Program-made: the position numbers and the translations under genes
Notes under the pieces: model-generated
The model's database searches: none
What the model saw: only the letters and a program-made list of their open reading frames with translations
What the model was told of the DNA's origin: nothing
Source: Burkholderiales bacterium
GTDB taxonomy: Bacteria; Pseudomonadota; Gammaproteobacteria; Burkholderiales; JBDZVW01
Assembly (NCBI GenBank): GCA_035700525.1
Contig: DASSON010000080.1
Span: 16,041 to 80,040 of the forward strand
Direction: 5' to 3'
Length of the DNA: 64,000 nucleotides
In this document: piece after piece, positions 5,207 to 13,394 of the stretch
Numbering within the stretch: the first letter of the stretch is position 1
Layout of the letters: every line of letters starts with the position of its first letter

Positions 5207-5797
5207 ATGCAGACGTCGACACGCTATAGTCGCGCGATTCGGATAGTGCATGCGGTCACTGCAGCAGCGATCACCTTTCAACTGCTGGTCAGCCTCGTCA
5301 TGGATCATCCACACGCGACCCGGCCGATGTCCGCTGTTGGCAAGACGTATTTTCACTACCACGAATGGGCGGGACTGCTGACCGCGGGCGTTCTGCTGTG
5401 CGGCTGGATATACCGTTTACTGAACTGGCAGCGGGAATCGCAAAGCTCGCTGTATCCGTGGATCAGCGCCAATGGCTGTAGGGCCGTTGCGTCCGATCTG
5501 AAGGCATTTTTCTTATTCCGCTGGACACAAGTCCCGCCGGGCAGCGCGCTTGCCGGAACCGTGCACGGTCTCGGTCTGCTTGTTGCTTCAGCAATGGCCG
5601 TGAGCGGAGTCGCGATCTTCATCGGACTTTGGCCGGCGGACAGGGTGACGCCGGGTGTTCATAACCTGATGGAAGTGCACTCGATACTCGCGACCTTCAT
5701 GTGGATTTATCTCTACGGTCACAGCCTGATGGCGCTCTGGCATCAGCTCATCGGACACGCCACGCTCACAGCAATGTTCAGCTTCAAGCAGCGCTGA
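5207..5797 (+). CDS. Cytochrome b561 family protein (Ni_hydr_CYTB-like)
   Basis: 196 aa with four hydrophobic helices carrying conserved His residues (RIVHAV, HYHEWAG, EVHSILA, YGHSLMALWH). Family assigned from memory of PF01292-type proteins. Confidence 0.7.
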   Translation: MQTSTRYSRAIRIVHAVTAAAITFQLLVSLVMDHPHATRPMSAVGKTYFHYHEWAGLLTAGVLLCGWIYRLLNWQRESQSSLYPWISANGCRAVASDLKAFFLFRWTQVPPGSALAGTVHGLGLLVASAMAVSGVAIFIGLWPADRVTPGVHNLMEVHSILATFMWIYLYGHSLMALWHQLIGHATLTAMFSFKQR

Positions 5798-6066
5798 CTA
5801 CGCTGAAATGGCAGCATTGTGACTTGTCATCGATCCGTCAGTATTTAGAGCATTTTTGATTCAAGCATTAATTTCCCGGAGCGACGCGTTTTTCCCTGAA
5901 GAGCGCTACAACTCTTTCAAATCCTTGGGACAGTCCACTCTTAAACCGAAAAATGCTCCAGCTTTCTTTCTCTTTCTGTAAGCCGCGACACCTCGTACGC
6001 AGATCAGCTGACATCGAGCGAAGCGGCTAAATCCGATACAGCGCAGCCCCACTCTCTAGCGCCTTG

Positions 6067-9000
6067 TCATGCCCCGCGCTCCCGCGCAAACTGCCGGCGG
6101 CGCCAGTGCAGGTAGAGCGCCGGAATCAGGTTGGTACTGCGCACGGCGCTCCAGACGAGACCGCCCAGAATCACCACCGCCAGCCCCTGCTCCGGAGCGG
6201 CACCCTGCCCGAAACCGACGGCTGTGGGAAGCATGCCAAGAATCGCTGTGACCGCCGTGAGCACGATGGGACGAAAACGCACGCGGATTGCTTCGCGCAC
6301 CGCCTCCTCGGCAGGCATCCCGTCCATCTCGTTGTGCCGAGTCCGGTCGAGCAGTACGATGCTGTGTCGTAGTCCGATGCCAATCAATGTCAGAAACCCG
6401 ATGATGCCTGTCGCATTGAGTCCGACGCCGCTCAGGACGAGCGCGATGGCACCGCCGGTCACGGCGAGCGGGATCTCCAGCAGCAGGATACCCGGGACGA
6501 GCAGCCCCCCGAACTGCAGAACAAGAATGCCTACCATCAGCAGGAAGGCGGCGGCCGCGGCGATGATGAGTCCGAGCGCGGCGCGCTCGAGTTCGGCATA
6601 GAGTCCCCCGAATTCGATACGGTAACCGGACGGCAAACTCAGGCCCGCCAGTGCCCGGTGCGCTGCCGCTACTGTTTTGCCAAGCGTTCCGGTCGGAGTG
6701 GCCAGGATGTCGAGCGCGCGGGCGCCAGCCACATGGCGAATCTGGTTCGGGGTAGCGACGAGATCTATTGCAGCGAGTTGGCCGAGCGGCGTCCAGCCGC
6801 CATCCGTGCGGATCGGTATGCGTGCGAGCGCCGCGAGCGACTTGTCAGGCGCGCCGGCAAGACGGATGTACAGATCGAGAGGGACATTGCCCTCCGGGAC
6901 CGTGGCGAGAATCTCGCCATTAAGCAGCGGATCGATCTGCGCGTAGAATTGCGCCGGCGTCAGTCCGTACGCGGCCAAAGCTGCAGCCCGCGGCTTGATC
7001 TGTAACTGCGTGACGGGATAGCCATCATTGTTGAAGATATCCGACAGTGCAGGGATGGATCGCAGCCGCGCGGTAATCTTCTCCGACAACGCGCGCAACT
7101 CTCCGAGGCTGCTGCCGAAAACATGAATCACGAACGGCTGCGGCAGCCCTGACAGGCTCTCGCCGAGACGCTCGACCGTGGGGGTGTCGACGGATAGTTG
7201 TACGCCTGTCAGCTGCGACTCCCGCCGTACGCGCTGTCCGATCCGGTCGAGTGCGTTGACGCTGATTCCGCGCTTGAGCACGATCTGCAGCTCGCCGGCA
7301 TAGGCAGGCTCGGTGTAAACGGTGCCCTGCGCCGACCCGATGCGGGCGAAGACATGCGCAACCGCCGGGTCGGCGAGTAATCTGCGGGTCATCTCGTCCA
7401 CTGCTGCTCGCGTGTCGATCAGCGAACTGCCCGGCGGCAAGGTGAACGACTCAAGGAGCACGCCCTCATTCGGCAGCGGCAAAAAGTCGATCGGCACCAA
7501 GAGCAGACCGAGGAGACTGAGCAGCAGCACCCCGAAGGTAATCGCGAGGCTGAGCCGCGGAGCGCGCGACACGAGATCGAACAGCCGCTCATTCCAGCGC
7601 CGTACCCGCTCAAGCAGGCGCTGGCCGCCTGCCATCCCCGCCGGGGCGGCGTGGAAGAAACCCAATCCAAGCGGGATCAGCGTGAGCGAGACCAGGAGCG
7701 ACGCGAGCAGCGCGAAGATCATCGCCAGGGAAAAGGGAATGAAGAAAAGCCCTACCAGTCCGCCGACGAAGAGCAGCGGCACATAGATTGAAACGTTGGT
7801 CAGCGTGCCGGTGATATCCGGGATGATGATGCTCCTTACACCGCGCCAGATTCCCGTCCAGTGATCGTCCCCTTCCTCCCAACAGTGGTGGATGCTCTCC
7901 AGCACGATAATGGCATCATCGGCCAGCAGTCCGATGGCAACCGTAAGGGCCCCGAGCGTCATCAGGTTCAGGTCCTGTCCGACAAAGTAGAGTGTCGCGA
8001 TCGCGATAGCCAGCGACATCGGAATGCTGAATGCCAGCACCCAGATGCCGCGCCCCGTCCCGAGGACCCAGAACAACACGGCAACGGCGAGGGCCATGCC
8101 AATGAGGAGATTGCGGCCGAGGTCAAGCCCGACGATGTGTACAATGTGCCCCTGGCTATAAGTGCGGACCCAGCGCACGCCGGCGGGAAGCTGGTTCACG
8201 GTTGCGGCAAGAGTAGCCTGTGCGGCCCGTGTGACCGGGACGGTCGCCGCCCCGGGTTGCTTGCTGATCGTGAGCGCAATGCTCGGACGGCCATCGAGCG
8301 AAACGGCGATGTGGGTCGGGATCGGTGCGCGCACGACGCGCGCCAGATCGCGCAGCGGAATCGGTCCGTGAGCTCCCGACACTGGAATGTCCTCTATCTG
8401 TGCAACGTGCGTAGGGAAGTGCCGGGCTTCGATGAGGACGTCGTTGTGACCTTGAATGATGTAGCCGGCAGGCGCGAGTAAAACCGAATCTCGGACAGCC
8501 TTCGCCACCGCGTCTACGGACACTCCGAAACGGTGCAATACACCAAGGTCGGGCTGAATCCACAACGCCTCGTCACCGACGCCGTAGACATCCACGTACT
8601 GGACACCGGGCAGCGCGCGCAGCGCGGGTGCGACGTTGGCGAGCACCGCACGCTGTACTTGCGCCGGTGCAACGCCCGGCGGGATTACAGCCGTATAGTC
8701 CGCCACCTCGTTGATCGCGTTTCCCATTATCTGGGCGATCGGCCGTGCTGTCGGCGGCAGCTGGCCGCGCGCGCGATCGATCGCGCCGTTGACGGCCTGC
8801 AGATCAAGCTCGGCTGCCGTACCTTCGCGGAAACGTGCGTGGATTTCCACGGTGCCGTGGCCCATGACGGAGCGGACACTTTGCAGGTCCGGGAGCGTCA
8901 GTATCTGGCCCTCCAATGGATAGACGACCAGGTTCTCGAGTTCGCTCGCTGTCGTCCCCGGAACGTGCACCACAACGTTGATCTGCGGAAAGTTGAGTTG

Positions 9001-9123
9001 CGGCAGCACCTCCACCGGAATGTGCATGAACGCGTAAGCGGCGTACCCAATCAGTGCTACAAGCACGAGCACCCACAGTATGGGCTGCGTTAGCACGCGC
9101 GGCAGAGAGGGAGCAGCAGCCAT
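6067..9123 (-). CDS. RND efflux transporter, inner-membrane permease subunit
   Basis: 1018 aa with the typical 12-TM, two-large-loop RND layout. The TM4 motif GLLADDAIIVLES resembles the AcrB-type DD relay rather than the CzcA DFG-DGA-VEN motif. Starts 3 nt after the adaptor gene stop. Confidence 0.9.
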   Translation of the reverse strand: MAAAPSLPRVLTQPILWVLVLVALIGYAAYAFMHIPVEVLPQLNFPQINVVVHVPGTTASELENLVVYPLEGQILTLPDLQSVRSVMGHGTVEIHARFREGTAAELDLQAVNGAIDRARGQLPPTARPIAQIMGNAINEVADYTAVIPPGVAPAQVQRAVLANVAPALRALPGVQYVDVYGVGDEALWIQPDLGVLHRFGVSVDAVAKAVRDSVLLAPAGYIIQGHNDVLIEARHFPTHVAQIEDIPVSGAHGPIPLRDLARVVRAPIPTHIAVSLDGRPSIALTISKQPGAATVPVTRAAQATLAATVNQLPAGVRWVRTYSQGHIVHIVGLDLGRNLLIGMALAVAVLFWVLGTGRGIWVLAFSIPMSLAIAIATLYFVGQDLNLMTLGALTVAIGLLADDAIIVLESIHHCWEEGDDHWTGIWRGVRSIIIPDITGTLTNVSIYVPLLFVGGLVGLFFIPFSLAMIFALLASLLVSLTLIPLGLGFFHAAPAGMAGGQRLLERVRRWNERLFDLVSRAPRLSLAITFGVLLLSLLGLLLVPIDFLPLPNEGVLLESFTLPPGSSLIDTRAAVDEMTRRLLADPAVAHVFARIGSAQGTVYTEPAYAGELQIVLKRGISVNALDRIGQRVRRESQLTGVQLSVDTPTVERLGESLSGLPQPFVIHVFGSSLGELRALSEKITARLRSIPALSDIFNNDGYPVTQLQIKPRAAALAAYGLTPAQFYAQIDPLLNGEILATVPEGNVPLDLYIRLAGAPDKSLAALARIPIRTDGGWTPLGQLAAIDLVATPNQIRHVAGARALDILATPTGTLGKTVAAAHRALAGLSLPSGYRIEFGGLYAELERAALGLIIAAAAAFLLMVGILVLQFGGLLVPGILLLEIPLAVTGGAIALVLSGVGLNATGIIGFLTLIGIGLRHSIVLLDRTRHNEMDGMPAEEAVREAIRVRFRPIVLTAVTAILGMLPTAVGFGQGAAPEQGLAVVILGGLVWSAVRSTNLIPALYLHWRRRQFARERGA

Positions 9124-9126
9124 GCC

Positions 9127-10191
9127 TCAGTCAGGCGGCGTGTAGTGCCGCGAAATTTCCCGATGAAATTCGAGATACGCGTTCTGCACCACGACCTGCT
9201 GTCCGGACTCAATGCCCTTCTCAATGAAGGTCTGCCGGCCGCGGACAGGGCCGGGTACAACAGCCCGCCTCAGATCCCCTTGCGGCGTGCGCTCCAGGAC
9301 CCACCAGTGCCCTCCATAAAGGATCAGCGCGCGCGTCGGAACCGCTACCATCGATCGCGTCGCGCCTTCCACTGTCACGATTCCGCGCTCTCCGTTGCGC
9401 CACGGAGATGGCGTCTTCTCCCCGCGCACGGCCGGCTCGGCAGCCATCAGCCCGACCGACTCTCCGCCATCCGGGCCAAGCGCGGCTGAAACGGATGCGA
9501 CCGTGACTGCTACGGGTGCACCTCCCGCGGCCGGTTGGAATCGTCCCTTCATGCCGATACGGATTGAGGCAGCATCTGCTCCGTAGTAAGCGGCTTTCAA
9601 CCACAGGCTGCTGCTCGTTTGCACCGTGAGGACGACTTGGCCAGCCGTGATGCGCTCGCCATTGGCCGCAGAAACGGAGAGCACAATTCCGGCGGACGGC
9701 GCGTGCAGCGCGCTCATTTGCTGCGTCGCCCACAGTTGGGCGCGCGCGGTTTCGAAGGCCGCCGTTGCTGTTGCCGCCGCGCTTTGCGCCGCGGCAACAG
9801 CCTGTCGGGTACTGAGGCGCGCGCTCAACTGCTTGTGCTCGATGGCGAGCGATTGTTTGGCTGCGGTGAGGACTGCGTGTGTGCTGCGCACCGCGCTTTT
9901 CCGCTTCACGAGAAGCGACTGAATCTCGGGCCCCGTCAAGGTGGCAAGCGCCTGTCCGGCCGTCACCCGCGATCCCGGCGCTACCGTCATCGTGGCCACA
10001 ATCCCCGCTACGGGGGCACGCACCGCGAGAAGCGCAACGGGCTGCACCTGAGCGTATGCCAGGAAGCGATCTGTGACGGGCTGCGCATGTACGGTGATCG
10101 TTTCCGATCCCGACGTGACAGCGGCGCCCGTCCCGATGCAATACCCGACACACAACACCGCCAGCGCGGCGCATCGCCGTGCAACCCGCAT
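9127..10191 (-). CDS. RND efflux periplasmic adaptor (membrane fusion protein, HlyD family)
   Basis: 354 aa with an N-terminal signal/anchor and an Ala/Gln-rich coiled-coil hairpin (AAAQSAAATATAAFETARAQLW) flanked by beta-rich lipoyl and barrel segments. Immediately upstream of the RND pump. Confidence 0.8.
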   Translation of the reverse strand: MRVARRCAALAVLCVGYCIGTGAAVTSGSETITVHAQPVTDRFLAYAQVQPVALLAVRAPVAGIVATMTVAPGSRVTAGQALATLTGPEIQSLLVKRKSAVRSTHAVLTAAKQSLAIEHKQLSARLSTRQAVAAAQSAAATATAAFETARAQLWATQQMSALHAPSAGIVLSVSAANGERITAGQVVLTVQTSSSLWLKAAYYGADAASIRIGMKGRFQPAAGGAPVAVTVASVSAALGPDGGESVGLMAAEPAVRGEKTPSPWRNGERGIVTVEGATRSMVAVPTRALILYGGHWWVLERTPQGDLRRAVVPGPVRGRQTFIEKGIESGQQVVVQNAYLEFHREISRHYTPPD

Positions 10192-10193
10192 CG

Positions 10194-11099
10194 TCAGGAC
10201 ATCAGCGCGAGCAAGGGACGTACGAGATGGTCTCCGTACTCCGCACCGAGCACAAGCGCGGTCAGGAGCAGTGGTATCAGCAGAAAGGCGACCCGCTCAA
10301 CGGTGAGAGTTCGAGCTTTCTCGTTGCCTGTGGACCGCACGGCCGGTGCGAGCAGGCGAGACACTCGATCCTTAAGCGCGCGCGATTCCCCTGTAAGCCT
10401 GGCGTGGGTCAATTGCATGCGGTTGGCATCGTCGGACCGATCACGTCGCATCGATGCAGCGTGATTGCCAAAACGCACGCACGCCAATACCGCCGCCGCC
10501 AGGTCTGTGCCGCTCACGCCCCGTGCCTGGGCCTCGTCGTCGCGAGCCTGCTCGAGCGCGGCAAGCCAGCTCTCCAGCCGCCGTCGTGCTGGCGGCCATG
10601 GCCATTGCAAGTCCGTGACGAGTTGCGCAAGCCAGATACGCAGCGGGTCGTAGTGCCACATATGCGCGCGTTCGTGCTCGAGCGCAGCACGGATCACCGC
10701 CTCATCGAGTTCTCTGGCGAGGAATGGGGAGAACACGACTTGCGGTCTGAGAAGTCCGACCGTGCACACGCCGCACTCGTCCGGCGCACGCAGCAACGAC
10801 CAGATGGCGCGCACCGCTGCGCGGCCGAATAGCAGTGCAAATGGCGCACAGGCAGCCACCAGCACACCAGGATCAAGCCGATCCCTGACTGGATCCGGCT
10901 GCACCAGCGCCCAGCCGCACAGCCACGCGGCGACCGTGAGCATCGGCAAAACCGGCAGCCAGAGCCGCCACCAGCGCCTGCGCTCGAGCTCGGCCGAGCT
11001 TGCAACCCGGCTGCCGGCAGCCCCCCAGGAAGCGAGAGGCTGCAGCGCTATACCGCCGAGCAGTACGATGAGCAATACCAATAGCGATTCACGTTCCAC
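10194..11099 (-). CDS. M56-family (BlaR1/MecR1-like) membrane metalloprotease, short form without a penicillin-binding sensor domain
   Basis: 301 aa with several TM helices and the zinc motif HERAH in ALEHERAHMWHYDPL (HExxH, as in the BlaR1 protease domain). Ends in a TM helix with no extracellular PBP-like domain. 11-nt overlap with the upstream repressor gene. Confidence 0.75.
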   Translation of the reverse strand: MERESLLVLLIVLLGGIALQPLASWGAAGSRVASSAELERRRWWRLWLPVLPMLTVAAWLCGWALVQPDPVRDRLDPGVLVAACAPFALLFGRAAVRAIWSLLRAPDECGVCTVGLLRPQVVFSPFLARELDEAVIRAALEHERAHMWHYDPLRIWLAQLVTDLQWPWPPARRRLESWLAALEQARDDEAQARGVSGTDLAAAVLACVRFGNHAASMRRDRSDDANRMQLTHARLTGESRALKDRVSRLLAPAVRSTGNEKARTLTVERVAFLLIPLLLTALVLGAEYGDHLVRPLLALMS

Positions 11100-11484
11100 C
11101 TTTCGATCTCCTTCGCGCAGCTACCTGCCTCTCGAGTTCAGCAAGCAGTTCGGGATCGACGGTATCGACTGCCTCCACGAGCGCCGCAACGGCTGCCCGG
11201 GGACTCGACCCTAACAATCGCGTCACGGCATTGCGAGCCCGTGCACGCTCCACTTCTTCACGTGCAATGCGAGGTTGGTAGAGAAACACGTTGCCTTTGC
11301 GCTGACGCTGTATCAGACCTTTTCCACGCAGCCGATCAACCACCTTGGCGGTGGTGGTGTACACCAGGCCCTGCGGTGCACCGAGTCGCTCGTGAAGCTC
11401 GCGTACCGAAGCCGTACCGAGCTGCCACAGTTCCGCCAGCACGGCGTACTCGAGATCATCGGCAGGTAGGCGGAAATGCGCCAT
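11089..11484 (-). CDS. BlaI/MecI/CopY-family transcriptional repressor
   Basis: 131 aa with the winged-helix pattern E..VL.ELW..G.ASVRELHERL....VYTTTAKVVDRLRGKGLIQRQRKGNVFLYQP, typical of the Penicillinase_R family. First gene of the four-gene operon. Confidence 0.8.
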   Translation of the reverse strand: MAHFRLPADDLEYAVLAELWQLGTASVRELHERLGAPQGLVYTTTAKVVDRLRGKGLIQRQRKGNVFLYQPRIAREEVERARARNAVTRLLGSSPRAAVAALVEAVDTVDPELLAELERQVAARRRSKGGT

Positions 11485-11493
11485 GAATTCATT

Positions 11494-11511
11494 CTACGAC
11501 GGATGTCGTAG
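11494..11511. promoter_or_regulatory. Candidate operator for the BlaI-family repressor
   Basis: Perfect inverted repeat CTACGAC-GGAT-GTCGTAG, 10 nt upstream of the repressor ATG. Its TAC..GTA core recalls the TACA/TGTA boxes of BlaI/CopY regulators. Confidence 0.4.
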
Positions 11512-11804
11512 TTATGCAATGAGAGGGGGTCGTTAAATTAAGGTTTAAATTCCGGTCCATCAGCAACACGACCGCGAGAACGGTCAGTAGAACGATGATC
11601 ACGCCGGATCAGCGCACCTCCCGCGCAAATGCGAAACCAGAGTGCGGATCTGATGCGGCGGCCAGTAGGGCGCGCCGAGAACTGTCCGACATCGTCGGTT
11701 TACATTCTGTTACCAAAAAATCGACGCCGGTTCTGGCCGGCAGGCTCATACTTTTATGCGTGCCAGACAAGCATCACTATCAAGAACGGGAAGTGAGGTT
11801 AAGA

Positions 11805-12164
11805 ATGAAGCGTTACCTGATCGCATTTACAGCCTGTGCTGCACTGTGCGCGGTTTCGGCTCCCGCCTTTGCTGATCACGATGATGCTGGTATCGCGATC
11901 GTCGGTGGAATCGTCGGCGGGATCATTGGCTCGACTTTGGGCGGCCCAGTCGTCTATGCTTCACCCCCTCCAGTAGTGTATGCGCCACCTCCCCCAGTGG
12001 TGTACGCACCGCCCCCCGAGGTGATCTATACACCGCCGCCGGTGGTTGTGGAGCAGCGTTACTACGCCCCCTATCCTTACTATGCGCCTCGTGCTTACTA
12101 CCGGGGCGAGAACCACGTGCGATGGGTGCGGCACTGGCATCATCACGACGATGACGATGATTGA
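11805..12164 (+). CDS. Small secreted PxPV-repeat protein with a His/Asp-rich C-terminus
   Basis: ORF 11595..12164 trimmed to the ATG at 11805, preceded by GGAAGTGAGG. Sequence MKRYLIAFTACAALCAVSAPAFA (signal peptide), Gly-zipper GGIVGGIIGSTLGG, repeats PPPVVYA PPPPVVYA PPPEVIYT PPPVVV, Tyr-rich segment, tail WHHHDDDDD. Confidence 0.6.
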   Translation: MKRYLIAFTACAALCAVSAPAFADHDDAGIAIVGGIVGGIIGSTLGGPVVYASPPPVVYAPPPPVVYAPPPEVIYTPPPVVVEQRYYAPYPYYAPRAYYRGENHVRWVRHWHHHDDDDD

Positions 12165-12779: not shown

Positions 12780-13394
12780 ATGGAATCCTGGAATCAATAT
12801 ATTTTCCTGCTGTTGAACGCGTCCAGTCATCCTGGCGCGATAACGGTGGAAGCTGCGCAATTTGCTGCCAACTGGTTGGTCGTCGCTGCGGCTCTGGTAA
12901 TAGCTTATCTCTGGATATGGGGACTGACGTTAAAACGTAGCGCGCTGATCGCCGTCAGCGTGAGTACAGTTCTGGCACTTGGAATCAATCAGCTCTTGGG
13001 GCTGCTCTGGTTCGAGCCGCGGCCTTTTATAATCGGCTTGGGCCATACGTTGATGAACCATGCCCCCGACAATTCCTTCCCGAGCGACCACGCCACGTTT
13101 ATCTGGAGTCTGGGTTTCGGTCTTATCGCGACGCGCGCCTCGCCACGATGGGGCTGGCTTGTGGCGCTCGCGGGGATAGTGGTAGCTTGGGCACGGATCT
13201 ATCTGGGAGTGCATTTTCCAGCAGACATGGCTGGCTCTTTTGTCGTGGCAATGGCAAGTGCCGCCGTTGCACGCGCGCTTGTCCCCGTGGCGCAGCGCCG
13301 GTTGCTGCCGATCATCGAAGACTGCTACGAAGCGACTCTGGTCAAGCTTCGCCTCACGGCTATTATGCCGGCCAAAAGGGAAGTCGGTGAATGA
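12780..13394 (+). CDS. PAP2-family phosphatase (undecaprenyl-diphosphatase / lipid phosphatase type)
   Basis: 204 aa membrane protein with the three PAP2 motifs: EPRPF, PSDHA and ARIYLGVHFPADM. Confidence 0.8.
   Translation: MESWNQYIFLLLNASSHPGAITVEAAQFAANWLVVAAALVIAYLWIWGLTLKRSALIAVSVSTVLALGINQLLGLLWFEPRPFIIGLGHTLMNHAPDNSFPSDHATFIWSLGFGLIATRASPRWGWLVALAGIVVAWARIYLGVHFPADMAGSFVVAMASAAVARALVPVAQRRLLPIIEDCYEATLVKLRLTAIMPAKREVGE

Follow-up and report, generated by a model that had tools for sequence, protein, structure and literature searches.

A BlaI/BlaR-type repressor-protease pair with a conserved predicted operator precedes an RND efflux pump in a Burkholderiales bacterium

In the BlaR1/BlaI system, a repressor that occupies a palindrome in its own promoter is switched off by proteolytic cleavage (PMC9834060). 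Here, we describe a four-gene operon in which a repressor-protease pair that appears to be of this type is followed by the genes of an RND efflux pump. The operon is located on a 64,000-nt stretch of DNA of a Burkholderiales bacterium (JBDZVW01; assembly GCA_035700525.1, contig DASSON010000080.1, positions 16,041-80,040), and this whole stretch is referred to below as the window. BlaR1/BlaI and MecR1/MecI of Staphylococcus aureus and Bacillus licheniformis share with the window the repressor family and a HExxH/ExxxD gluzincin domain held in a four-helix membrane anchor. They differ from it in that BlaR1 and MecR1 carry an extracellular penicillin-binding sensor, and in that their outputs are beta-lactamase or PBP2a, whereas the output here is an RND pump.

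A penicillin-binding domain is present in only about 6% of the M56 proteins, while 96% of them are encoded near a BlaI-like gene (PMC13081940, a 2026 preprint). The sensor-less state is the commonest one for this protease family and is as such already known. Sensor-less BlaIR systems, which resemble the window in that the BlaR homologue has no sensor domain, include Rv1845c/Rv1846c of M. tuberculosis, BlaIR of M. abscessus, PvmSR of P. aeruginosa and CenIR of C. difficile. The targets described for these systems are ATP synthase and cell-division genes, virulence and metabolism genes, or cell-wall genes; none of the systems is reported to control an efflux pump. The best mechanistic precedent is the PetRP pair of Synechocystis sp. 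PCC 6803. In this pair, the protease PetP is BlaR-like, has four helices and lacks a sensor domain. The petP gene overlaps petR, and both PetP and copper are required for the degradation of PetR, a repressor of the BlaI/CopY type; the authors propose that the metal is sensed by a loop of 14 residues between helices 2 and 3, and the PetR operator has the core GAC-N5-GTC (bioRxiv 10.1101/2020.07.31.226407).

An open reading frame check of the window showed four tightly packed genes on the minus strand. These encode, in this order, a BlaI/MecI/CopY-family repressor (11484-11089; 131 aa, ATG start), a membrane zinc metalloprotease (11099-10194; 301 aa, GTG start), an RND periplasmic adaptor, or membrane fusion protein (10191-9127; 354 aa), and an RND permease (9123-6067; 1018 aa). 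The first two of these genes share 11 nt, with an AGGAG sequence 8 nt ahead of the GTG start of the protease gene, and the gaps between the protease and adaptor genes and between the adaptor and permease genes are 2 and 3 nt, respectively. This layout, in all its coordinates, had been proposed in a preliminary interpretation made from the DNA letters without database searches (the sequence-only reading), which also assigned the adaptor and the permease to their families, as profile searches now confirm. It had further pointed out that no outer-membrane factor (OMF) gene is present in the operon, and this holds for the entire 64-kb window, in which neither tblastn nor a profile of 25 cassette-linked OMFs detected one. 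The GC content of the cassette (0.62-0.66) barely differs from that of its flanks (0.54-0.65); a recent transfer was considered on this basis and dropped, as the composition gives no clear sign of it.

To place the operon in context, we compared it with 83 related loci, consisting of three contexts with precomputed Pfam labels and 80 loci obtained by scanning one genome per species. The neighbourhood survey recommended by the sequence-only reading shows that the succession of repressor, M56 protease, adaptor and RND pump is a conserved cassette: the same adaptor-pump pair follows the switch in 48 of the 83 loci, from Steroidobacteraceae as well as Burkholderiales, and these pumps are 65-82% identical to that of the window. 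The 48 loci comprise 22 in which the protease gene is followed by the adaptor, the pump and an OMF gene, nine that have the same adaptor and pump without an OMF gene, and 17 in which the protease is followed by the same adaptor (and pump) on a contig too short to judge the rest. In five other loci the protease gene precedes genes for an OMF, an adaptor and a CusA/CzcA-family pump, that is, in the czcCBA order; these CzcA-like pumps are about 27% identical to the window pump, and L074, whose pump was the one tested, reaches 631 bits with the CusA/CzcA family model. No pump follows the protease gene in 27 loci, 12 of which have the switch beside an ArsB-like gene and at least six others near genes for TonB-dependent receptors, whose own neighbours are phosphoesterase or sulfotransferase genes, varying by locus. 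The remaining three loci are uninformative. Wherever upstream sequence exists, blaI lies directly upstream of the protease gene, overlapping it in most loci. Judged from gene order, the conserved unit is the repressor-protease switch, and the pump is its commonest cargo.

Among the individual loci, L001, L002 and L004 carry the genes for repressor, protease, adaptor and RND pump in this order, with an OMF gene added in two of the three and an ArsB-like permease gene divergently oriented upstream in all three. Since an OMF gene directly follows the pump gene in 22 of the 31 relatives with enough downstream sequence, its absence is a trait of some genomes, including the window, and not of the family. 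The window pump would then either borrow an OMF encoded elsewhere or deliver its substrate only to the periplasm. Carriers are found in the Steroidobacteraceae, the Burkholderiales and a few delta-proteobacterial and Binataceae genomes, and protease homologues that are about 60% identical are abundant in metagenome-assembled genomes of the Steroidobacteraceae. Two carriers, Paraburkholderia sp. B3 and Trinickia sp. NRRL B-1857, are cultured.

The product of the first gene matches the Penicillinase_R family (PF03965) over its full length (79 bits, cutoff 22.6; profile positions 3-113 of 115), which bears out the BlaI-family label that it had received from the sequence alone. Its nearest solved relative is 2G9W, which we take to be M. 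tuberculosis Rv1846c (E 2.4e-9), followed by MecI (1.7e-3) and BlaI (1.8e-3). In every locus with upstream sequence a repressor homologue (61-88% identity) is encoded immediately upstream of the protease gene. The C-terminal cysteine-rich metal-binding motif of CopY is CxCx4CxC. The window repressor contains no cysteine and lacks the CopY motif, and with 40 bits it stays far below the cutoff (121.95) of the CopY/TcrY model TIGR02698. A CopY-type copper binder was therefore ruled out.

A perfect 18-bp palindrome, CTACGAC-GGAT-GTCGTAG, is located at positions 11494-11511, upstream of the first gene of the operon, and is its predicted repressor binding site (core TACGAC-N4-GTCGTA). The sequence-only reading had noticed this palindrome and placed it 10 nt upstream of the first ATG (11484); the distance is 9 nt. 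A single inverted repeat of this kind is not rare in itself, as about four repeats with 7+7 arms and a 4-nt loop are expected by chance in 64 kb (64000/4^7); its significance derives from the conservation of the core across the related loci. The exact core, with its 12 specified bases, occurs once in the window, and no second operator was found there, three sites with two mismatches being at chance level. In 1.18 Mb of related loci, on the other hand, there are 70 perfect cores against about 0.07 expected by chance, and 65 of the 70 lie 20-70 nt upstream of a blaI start. The arms do not vary and the spacer is unconstrained; 47 of 78 loci have the operator at position -26 exactly, counted from the start codon. 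The staphylococcal operators have the half-site TACA/TGTA, compared with TACGAC in the window, and the operator of M. tuberculosis BlaI may resemble TACGAC/GTCGTA. We regard the palindrome, on this comparative evidence, as the predicted operator of the repressor.

Three of the five cores not located at a blaI start are directly upstream of genes for TonB-dependent receptors (L058, position 13961; L066, 9928; L068, 9686), so the core behaves as expected of a genuine regulon mark. In these three genomes the same switch family appears, from the position of the cores, to control outer-membrane uptake genes. The switches of L058, L066 and L068 have no pump, and the receptor genes sit together with sulfotransferase or phosphoesterase genes and beta-propeller genes.

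The operator fills the spacer of a putative promoter formed by a -35 hexamer, TTGCAT (11514-11519, minus strand), and a -10 hexamer, TAGAAT (11491-11496, minus strand), which are separated by 17 nt. The -10 box overlaps the right arm of the palindrome and ends 6 nt before the ATG, and this is the sole promoter-like element of the operon. With only three of its six bases matching TTGACA, the -35 hexamer was not flagged by a simple promoter scan; its T-tG positions are conserved in an alignment of 47 upstream regions (consensus ccTtGcc), and TTGAC stands at this site in many Burkholderiales loci. The consensus of these 47 regions reads ccTtGcc...cTACGACg...GTCGTAgaaT, followed by 6 nt and the ATG. 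A Shine-Dalgarno-like tetramer precedes the start codon in 3 of the 47 loci and is missing from the other 44. Because of this, and with only 6 nt between the -10 box and the ATG, the operon mRNA is probably leaderless and would begin at the start codon. Leaderless mRNAs are, as far as known, uncommon in Gammaproteobacteria and Burkholderiales. The start codon is GTG in seven loci.

A variant, imperfect operator is present in the 60 nt upstream of blaI, with the promoter spacing kept, in L012, L020, L024, L025, L027, L034, L039 and L048. It reads GGGAC-GGCG-GACCTA or TCCGAC-GGCG-GTCCTA, and the loci concerned are pump-less and mostly have the switch beside an ArsB-like permease gene. Such variants could reflect an altered repressor specificity or a decaying switch.

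The second gene of the operon encodes the membrane protease. Its zinc-binding motif HERAH corresponds to residues 142-146, and the residues H142, E143, H146, D151, E183, D187 and R245, of which the last is presumably the equivalent of BlaR1 Arg294, do not vary in an alignment of 70 sequences with identities as low as 33%. These residues correspond to the kinds of motif that the PvmS preprint gives as the M56 signature, namely HExxH, an Asp at +5 from the second His, ExxxD and a conserved Arg. An AlphaFold2 model based on the alignment of 70 sequences (pLDDT 90.5, pTM 0.87) shows four long helices (residues 2-18, 49-65, 76-102 and 264-299), with the HExxH helical domain (110-250) between the third and the fourth; an earlier model from a shallow alignment reached a pLDDT of 66 and gave meaningless Foldseek matches. 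From the charge distribution we infer the orientation in the membrane, which would put the HExxH domain on the cytoplasmic side. The chain ends at residue 301, about 15 residues past the last transmembrane helix, leaving no room for a sensor domain, and neither a Pfam scan nor the AlphaFold2 model revealed a penicillin-binding or transpeptidase domain. The sequence-only reading had described a 301-residue M56 protein with a HERAH site and without a penicillin-binding sensor; it is accurate on length, zinc site and lack of the sensor, while its M56 assignment is confirmed only in part.

The loop between helices 2 and 3 has the sequence QPDPVRDRLDPG. It is acidic and proline-rich and contains no methionine; P68, D69, P70, V71 and D73 are conserved, and most relatives have E-P-D, with a Glu where the window protein has Q67. 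By analogy with PetP, this acidic, presumably periplasmic loop is most likely the sensing element, and one may speculate that an acidic loop devoid of methionine suits a hard cation better than Cu(I). The pair C109/C112, which forms a CxxC motif, was also considered as a metal site and rejected, as the second cysteine is a serine in most homologues. A search with the protease against 1.84 billion representative proteins returned 238 clusters at E<=1e-30 and a tail of 1,974 extending to E<=1e-3; among the matches listed, the homologues are mostly about 280 aa long and align over nearly their full length. No tblastn match was obtained among 72,556 plasmids.

The adaptor exceeds the cutoff of the NCBIfam model RND_mfp (101.2 bits, cutoff 94.9), with CzcB/NccB as the second-best model (70 bits), and it matches HlyD_3 and HlyD_D23 in Pfam. 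For its orthologues, Pfam reports BSH_CusB, BSH_CzcB and CzcB_C, most of these matches being weak or faint, and the only nearly invariant positions of the adaptor are M214 and H343. The permease matches ACR_tran over its full length (589 bits). Its closest solved relative is ZneA (283 bits), followed by MdtB (241 bits) and AcrB (about 156 bits), and ZneA is also the closest solved structure for the C-terminal half taken separately. Across 35 orthologues, D402, D403, E605, E611, E651 and E655 do not vary, and 34 of these proteins keep R919. E611, E651 and E655 align with E610, D654 and D658 of ZneA, while ZneA D602 aligns with V602, near which the invariant E605 is found. We take D602, E610, D654 and D658 of ZneA to be its zinc ligands; ZneA carries D or E at these four positions in the alignment.

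Compared with the ZneCAB and CzcCBA systems of Cupriavidus metallidurans, the window thus has a permease whose nearest relative is ZneA and whose acidic residues align with those of ZneA, together with an adaptor for which CzcB/NccB is the second-best model. The window differs from these systems by the A-D-D-A relay of its pump, by a CusA/CzcA score (TIGR00914) of 385 bits against a cutoff of 701, and by the absence of an OMF gene from the operon. ZneCAB and CzcCBA are regulated by the two-component systems ZneRS and CzcRS, and their TM4 motif is DFG-DGA-VEN. From these comparisons the permease appears to represent a divergent clade between the heavy-metal and the multidrug families.

Taking these data together, we consider with moderate confidence that the locus is an autoregulated operon in which a BlaI/BlaR-type proteolytic switch, encoded by the first two genes, controls the RND efflux pump encoded by the last two. 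In such a scheme, a repressor dimer bound to the operator would block RNA polymerase and hold expression of the four genes down to a low basal level. Once the membrane-embedded or periplasmic part of the protease perceives a signal, its cytoplasmic HExxH domain would become active, and the protease would cleave or otherwise inactivate the repressor. The leaderless operon mRNA would then be made, and the levels of pump, sensor and repressor would all rise; once the signal falls, newly made repressor would shut the operon off. PetRP offers a close parallel, in that its genes overlap, its protease is a four-helix M48/M56 protein of about 280-300 aa with a cytoplasmic HExxH between helices 3 and 4, and an operator with a GAC...GTC inverted repeat lies between the -35 and -10 elements of a repressed promoter. 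The two systems differ in that PetRP controls the petE/petJ electron-carrier switch and not a transporter, that the PetP loop has two conserved methionines whereas the window loop is acidic and proline-rich, and that the operator spacer is N5 in PetRP and N4 in the window; the likeness rests on the published description of PetP.

Several points weigh against this view of the operon and have to be set beside the rival explanations. The parts, their linkage and the operator can be read from the sequence, while activation and cleavage are carried over by analogy from what the family does. The sole Pfam match of the protease, to Peptidase_M56 (PF05569), reaches 23.3 bits, which is under the cutoff of 31, and it spans only profile positions 169-224, the region of the active site. 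In a Foldseek search with the pLDDT 90.5 model, S. aureus BlaR1 (8exr_B) came fourth; it had the best probability (0.35) and TM-score (0.26) of the list, yet the match is not significant (E 1.5). BlaR1 was also not retrieved from the PDB sequences by either of two family profiles (A1, 20 sequences; A2, 70 sequences), which yielded instead a chance match to a thymidylate kinase and, as the sole PDB match of the broad profile, an HtpX homologue with a non-significant E of 0.43. Furthermore, the 27 pump-less switch loci imply that the pump is only one possible cargo. On the other side, M56 is the best family for all of 20 aligned homologues (best E 7.7e-7), and among ten remote relatives two pass the M56 cutoff, with 31.1 and 37.6 bits. 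The assignment to M56, which had been made from the sequence alone, is therefore borderline by score, with no significant match to BlaR1, but sound by motif and by linkage. The protein is best called a BlaR-like member of the M48/M56 superfamily, the wording used for PetP.

These scores are also what could be claimed for a different role of the protease, as an HtpX-like quality-control protease or a pump assembly factor, with a repressor that senses the signal itself as CopY does; 12 of the 20 aligned homologues match Peptidase_M48 weakly in addition to M56, and the HtpX match and the failure to recover BlaR1 significantly point the same way. We consider this improbable. The protease is paired with blaI in all loci, and the persistence of this pair in the 27 without a pump ties the protease to the repressor rather than to efflux. 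A repressor with neither cysteine nor CopY motif, scoring 40 bits against the 122 demanded by the CopY model, is not what this alternative would predict. Moreover, about 96% of the M56 proteins are encoded within five genes of a BlaI-like repressor (PMC13081940), and PetP, which has the same architecture, is needed for the degradation of PetR. More remote still is a classical, beta-lactam-responsive BlaR1/BlaI system re-targeted to efflux, for which only the family names speak and which we find scarcely credible: there is no penicillin-binding or transpeptidase domain, the protein ends soon after its fourth helix, no beta-lactamase gene is present in the neighbourhood (the window, L001, L002 and L004), and the sensor-less relatives PvmSR and CenIR, two of those that have been studied, showed no role in beta-lactam resistance. 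A further alternative keeps the switch and concerns what it serves. The pump would export organic amphiphiles or xenobiotics, and the protease would sense membrane-active compounds or envelope damage through its helices. TM4 of the permease reads AIGLLADDAIIVLES (within residues 398-410, GLLADDAIIVLES), which is the A-D-D-A relay of multidrug pumps. The proton relay of AcrB consists of D407, D408 and K940, and the CusA/CzcA signature in TM4 is DFG-DGA-VEN. The window permease lacks the latter and has the Asp-Asp pair, D402/D403, as well as a basic residue in TM10, R919, at what we take to be the position of AcrB K940. Its best NCBIfam model is the multidrug RND_permease_2 (NF033617), with 441 bits compared with 385 for CusA/CzcA; the scores for the multidrug models NF033617, NF000282 and TIGR00915 are 441, 328 and 272 bits, for cutoffs of 1250, 1250 and 940. 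Multidrug-type structures are the nearest ones for the N-terminal half as well as for the N-terminal porter region, and the adaptor has no conserved cluster of Met, His or Cys residues that could serve as metal ligands. Against this stand the position of ZneA as the nearest solved structure, for the full length as well as for the C-terminal half, the invariant acidic cluster that matches ZneA residues, the leaning of the adaptors and OMFs towards metal-type families, and the sister switches at CzcA-like pumps and ArsB-like permease genes. We judge export of organic compounds under such a switch unlikely, and the class of the pump ambiguous. The sequence-only reading had called the TM4 motif of the pump AcrB-like rather than CzcA-like; this is right for the motif and does not extend to the protein as a whole, whose nearest solved structure is a zinc pump.

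Returning to the proteolytic switch, the signal and the pump substrate are most likely compounds of the same class. For the substrate, a divalent metal cation is our tentative first choice, held with a little less than even confidence; an organic amphiphile is a possible but rather doubtful second, and something else would account for the remainder. Hints of a metal come from the adaptors and OMFs, which lean to the CzcB, CusB and IhpA models, from the sister switches that precede CusA/CzcA-family pumps or adjoin a divergent ArsB-like permease gene, and from a divergent neighbour gene in the window whose small secreted product ends in a HWHHHDDDDD tail. Other sister switches precede TonB-dependent receptor genes, and the signal of this switch family need therefore not be a metal. 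Many isolate labels of the carriers appear to refer to Chinese metal-mine sites and Oak Ridge contaminated wells. A wider view would be that of a portable switch that senses periplasmic metals through the acidic loop and that fronts an RND pump combining a multidrug-type proton relay with a ZneA-type acidic site, CzcA-like pumps and TonB-dependent receptors alike; in this full form we regard it as an unlikely, if attractive, proposal.

The sequence-only reading had stated that a proteolytic switch wired to RND efflux is not a textbook arrangement. This remains a fair statement: in the full-text literature, a search that left most subscription journals uncovered, we found no characterised BlaI/BlaR or M56 system wired to RND or czc genes. 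The wiring of a BlaI/BlaR-type switch to RND efflux thus appears to be uncharacterised. What is new is the output and the sensing element, within a regulatory logic that was known before; the operator of the cassette and its distribution have now been defined. To our knowledge, RND pumps have been placed under TetR, MarR, LysR or AraC-type regulators, two-component systems or ECF sigma factors. If our interpretation is correct, the BlaI/BlaR switch adds a further control logic to these, which is irreversible at the protein level and is reset only by new synthesis. The controls of RND metal efflux that we know of are two-component systems, MerR or ArsR regulators and ECF sigma factors; should the switch indeed respond to periplasmic metals, it would be the first case of RND metal efflux controlled by regulated proteolysis.

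These results also bear on a question raised by the 2026 preprints, namely what the sensor-less BlaR-like proteases detect. As the regulated cargo is in this case a transporter, its substrate is an obvious candidate for the signal. The operator is exact and portable, which allows regulons to be read directly from genomes, and the existence of two cultured carriers makes laboratory tests of the idea possible. In the case of a metal signal, the system would be relevant to the metal resistance of soil and mine-site bacteria. In addition, the repressor-operator pair, which is strictly conserved, could find use as a compact part for inducible expression.

Some features of the surroundings of the cassette deserve mention. 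A permease gene of the ArsB/CitMHS superfamily is oriented divergently from blaI in L001 (8223-9491, minus strand) and in 25 other loci. The permease scores 157 bits for ArsB, where the cutoff is 457, and the intergenic region measures about 125-140 bp (L001, L011), so that the gene may share the operator-controlled region. No remnant of an ArsB-like permease was found in the window, which has, at the place where relatives have that gene, a gene for a small secreted protein (11805-12164, plus strand; 119 aa) divergent from the operon. This protein combines a signal peptide and a Gly-rich stretch with three PPPVVY-type repeats, its C-terminal tail reads HWHHHDDDDD, and it has no match in Pfam or NCBIfam. 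Homologues of the same build, with the tail HWKHHGEDDDDD, are encoded at the same divergent position by blaI in two loci of Candidimonas, which belongs to a different order (L072, 8068-8427, minus strand; L069, about 8074-8301, minus strand). The protein is a possible accessory of the system and may be a periplasmic metal-binding one.

Beyond this divergent neighbour, the window carries a PAP2 phosphatase gene (12780-13394, plus strand) that is syntenic with PAP2 genes located upstream of the cassette in L001, L002 and L004. Mobile-element genes are found next to the cassette in other carriers. In Sideroxydans (L044), Pfam identifies a phage-type integrase gene beside the cassette (7236-8243, minus strand), and in Paraburkholderia sp. 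B3 (L062), two open reading frames at 5440-7560 (plus strand) resemble by eye a DDE transposase and a TniB-like ATPase. The presence of such neighbours in Burkholderiales carriers suggests that the cassette has spread horizontally.

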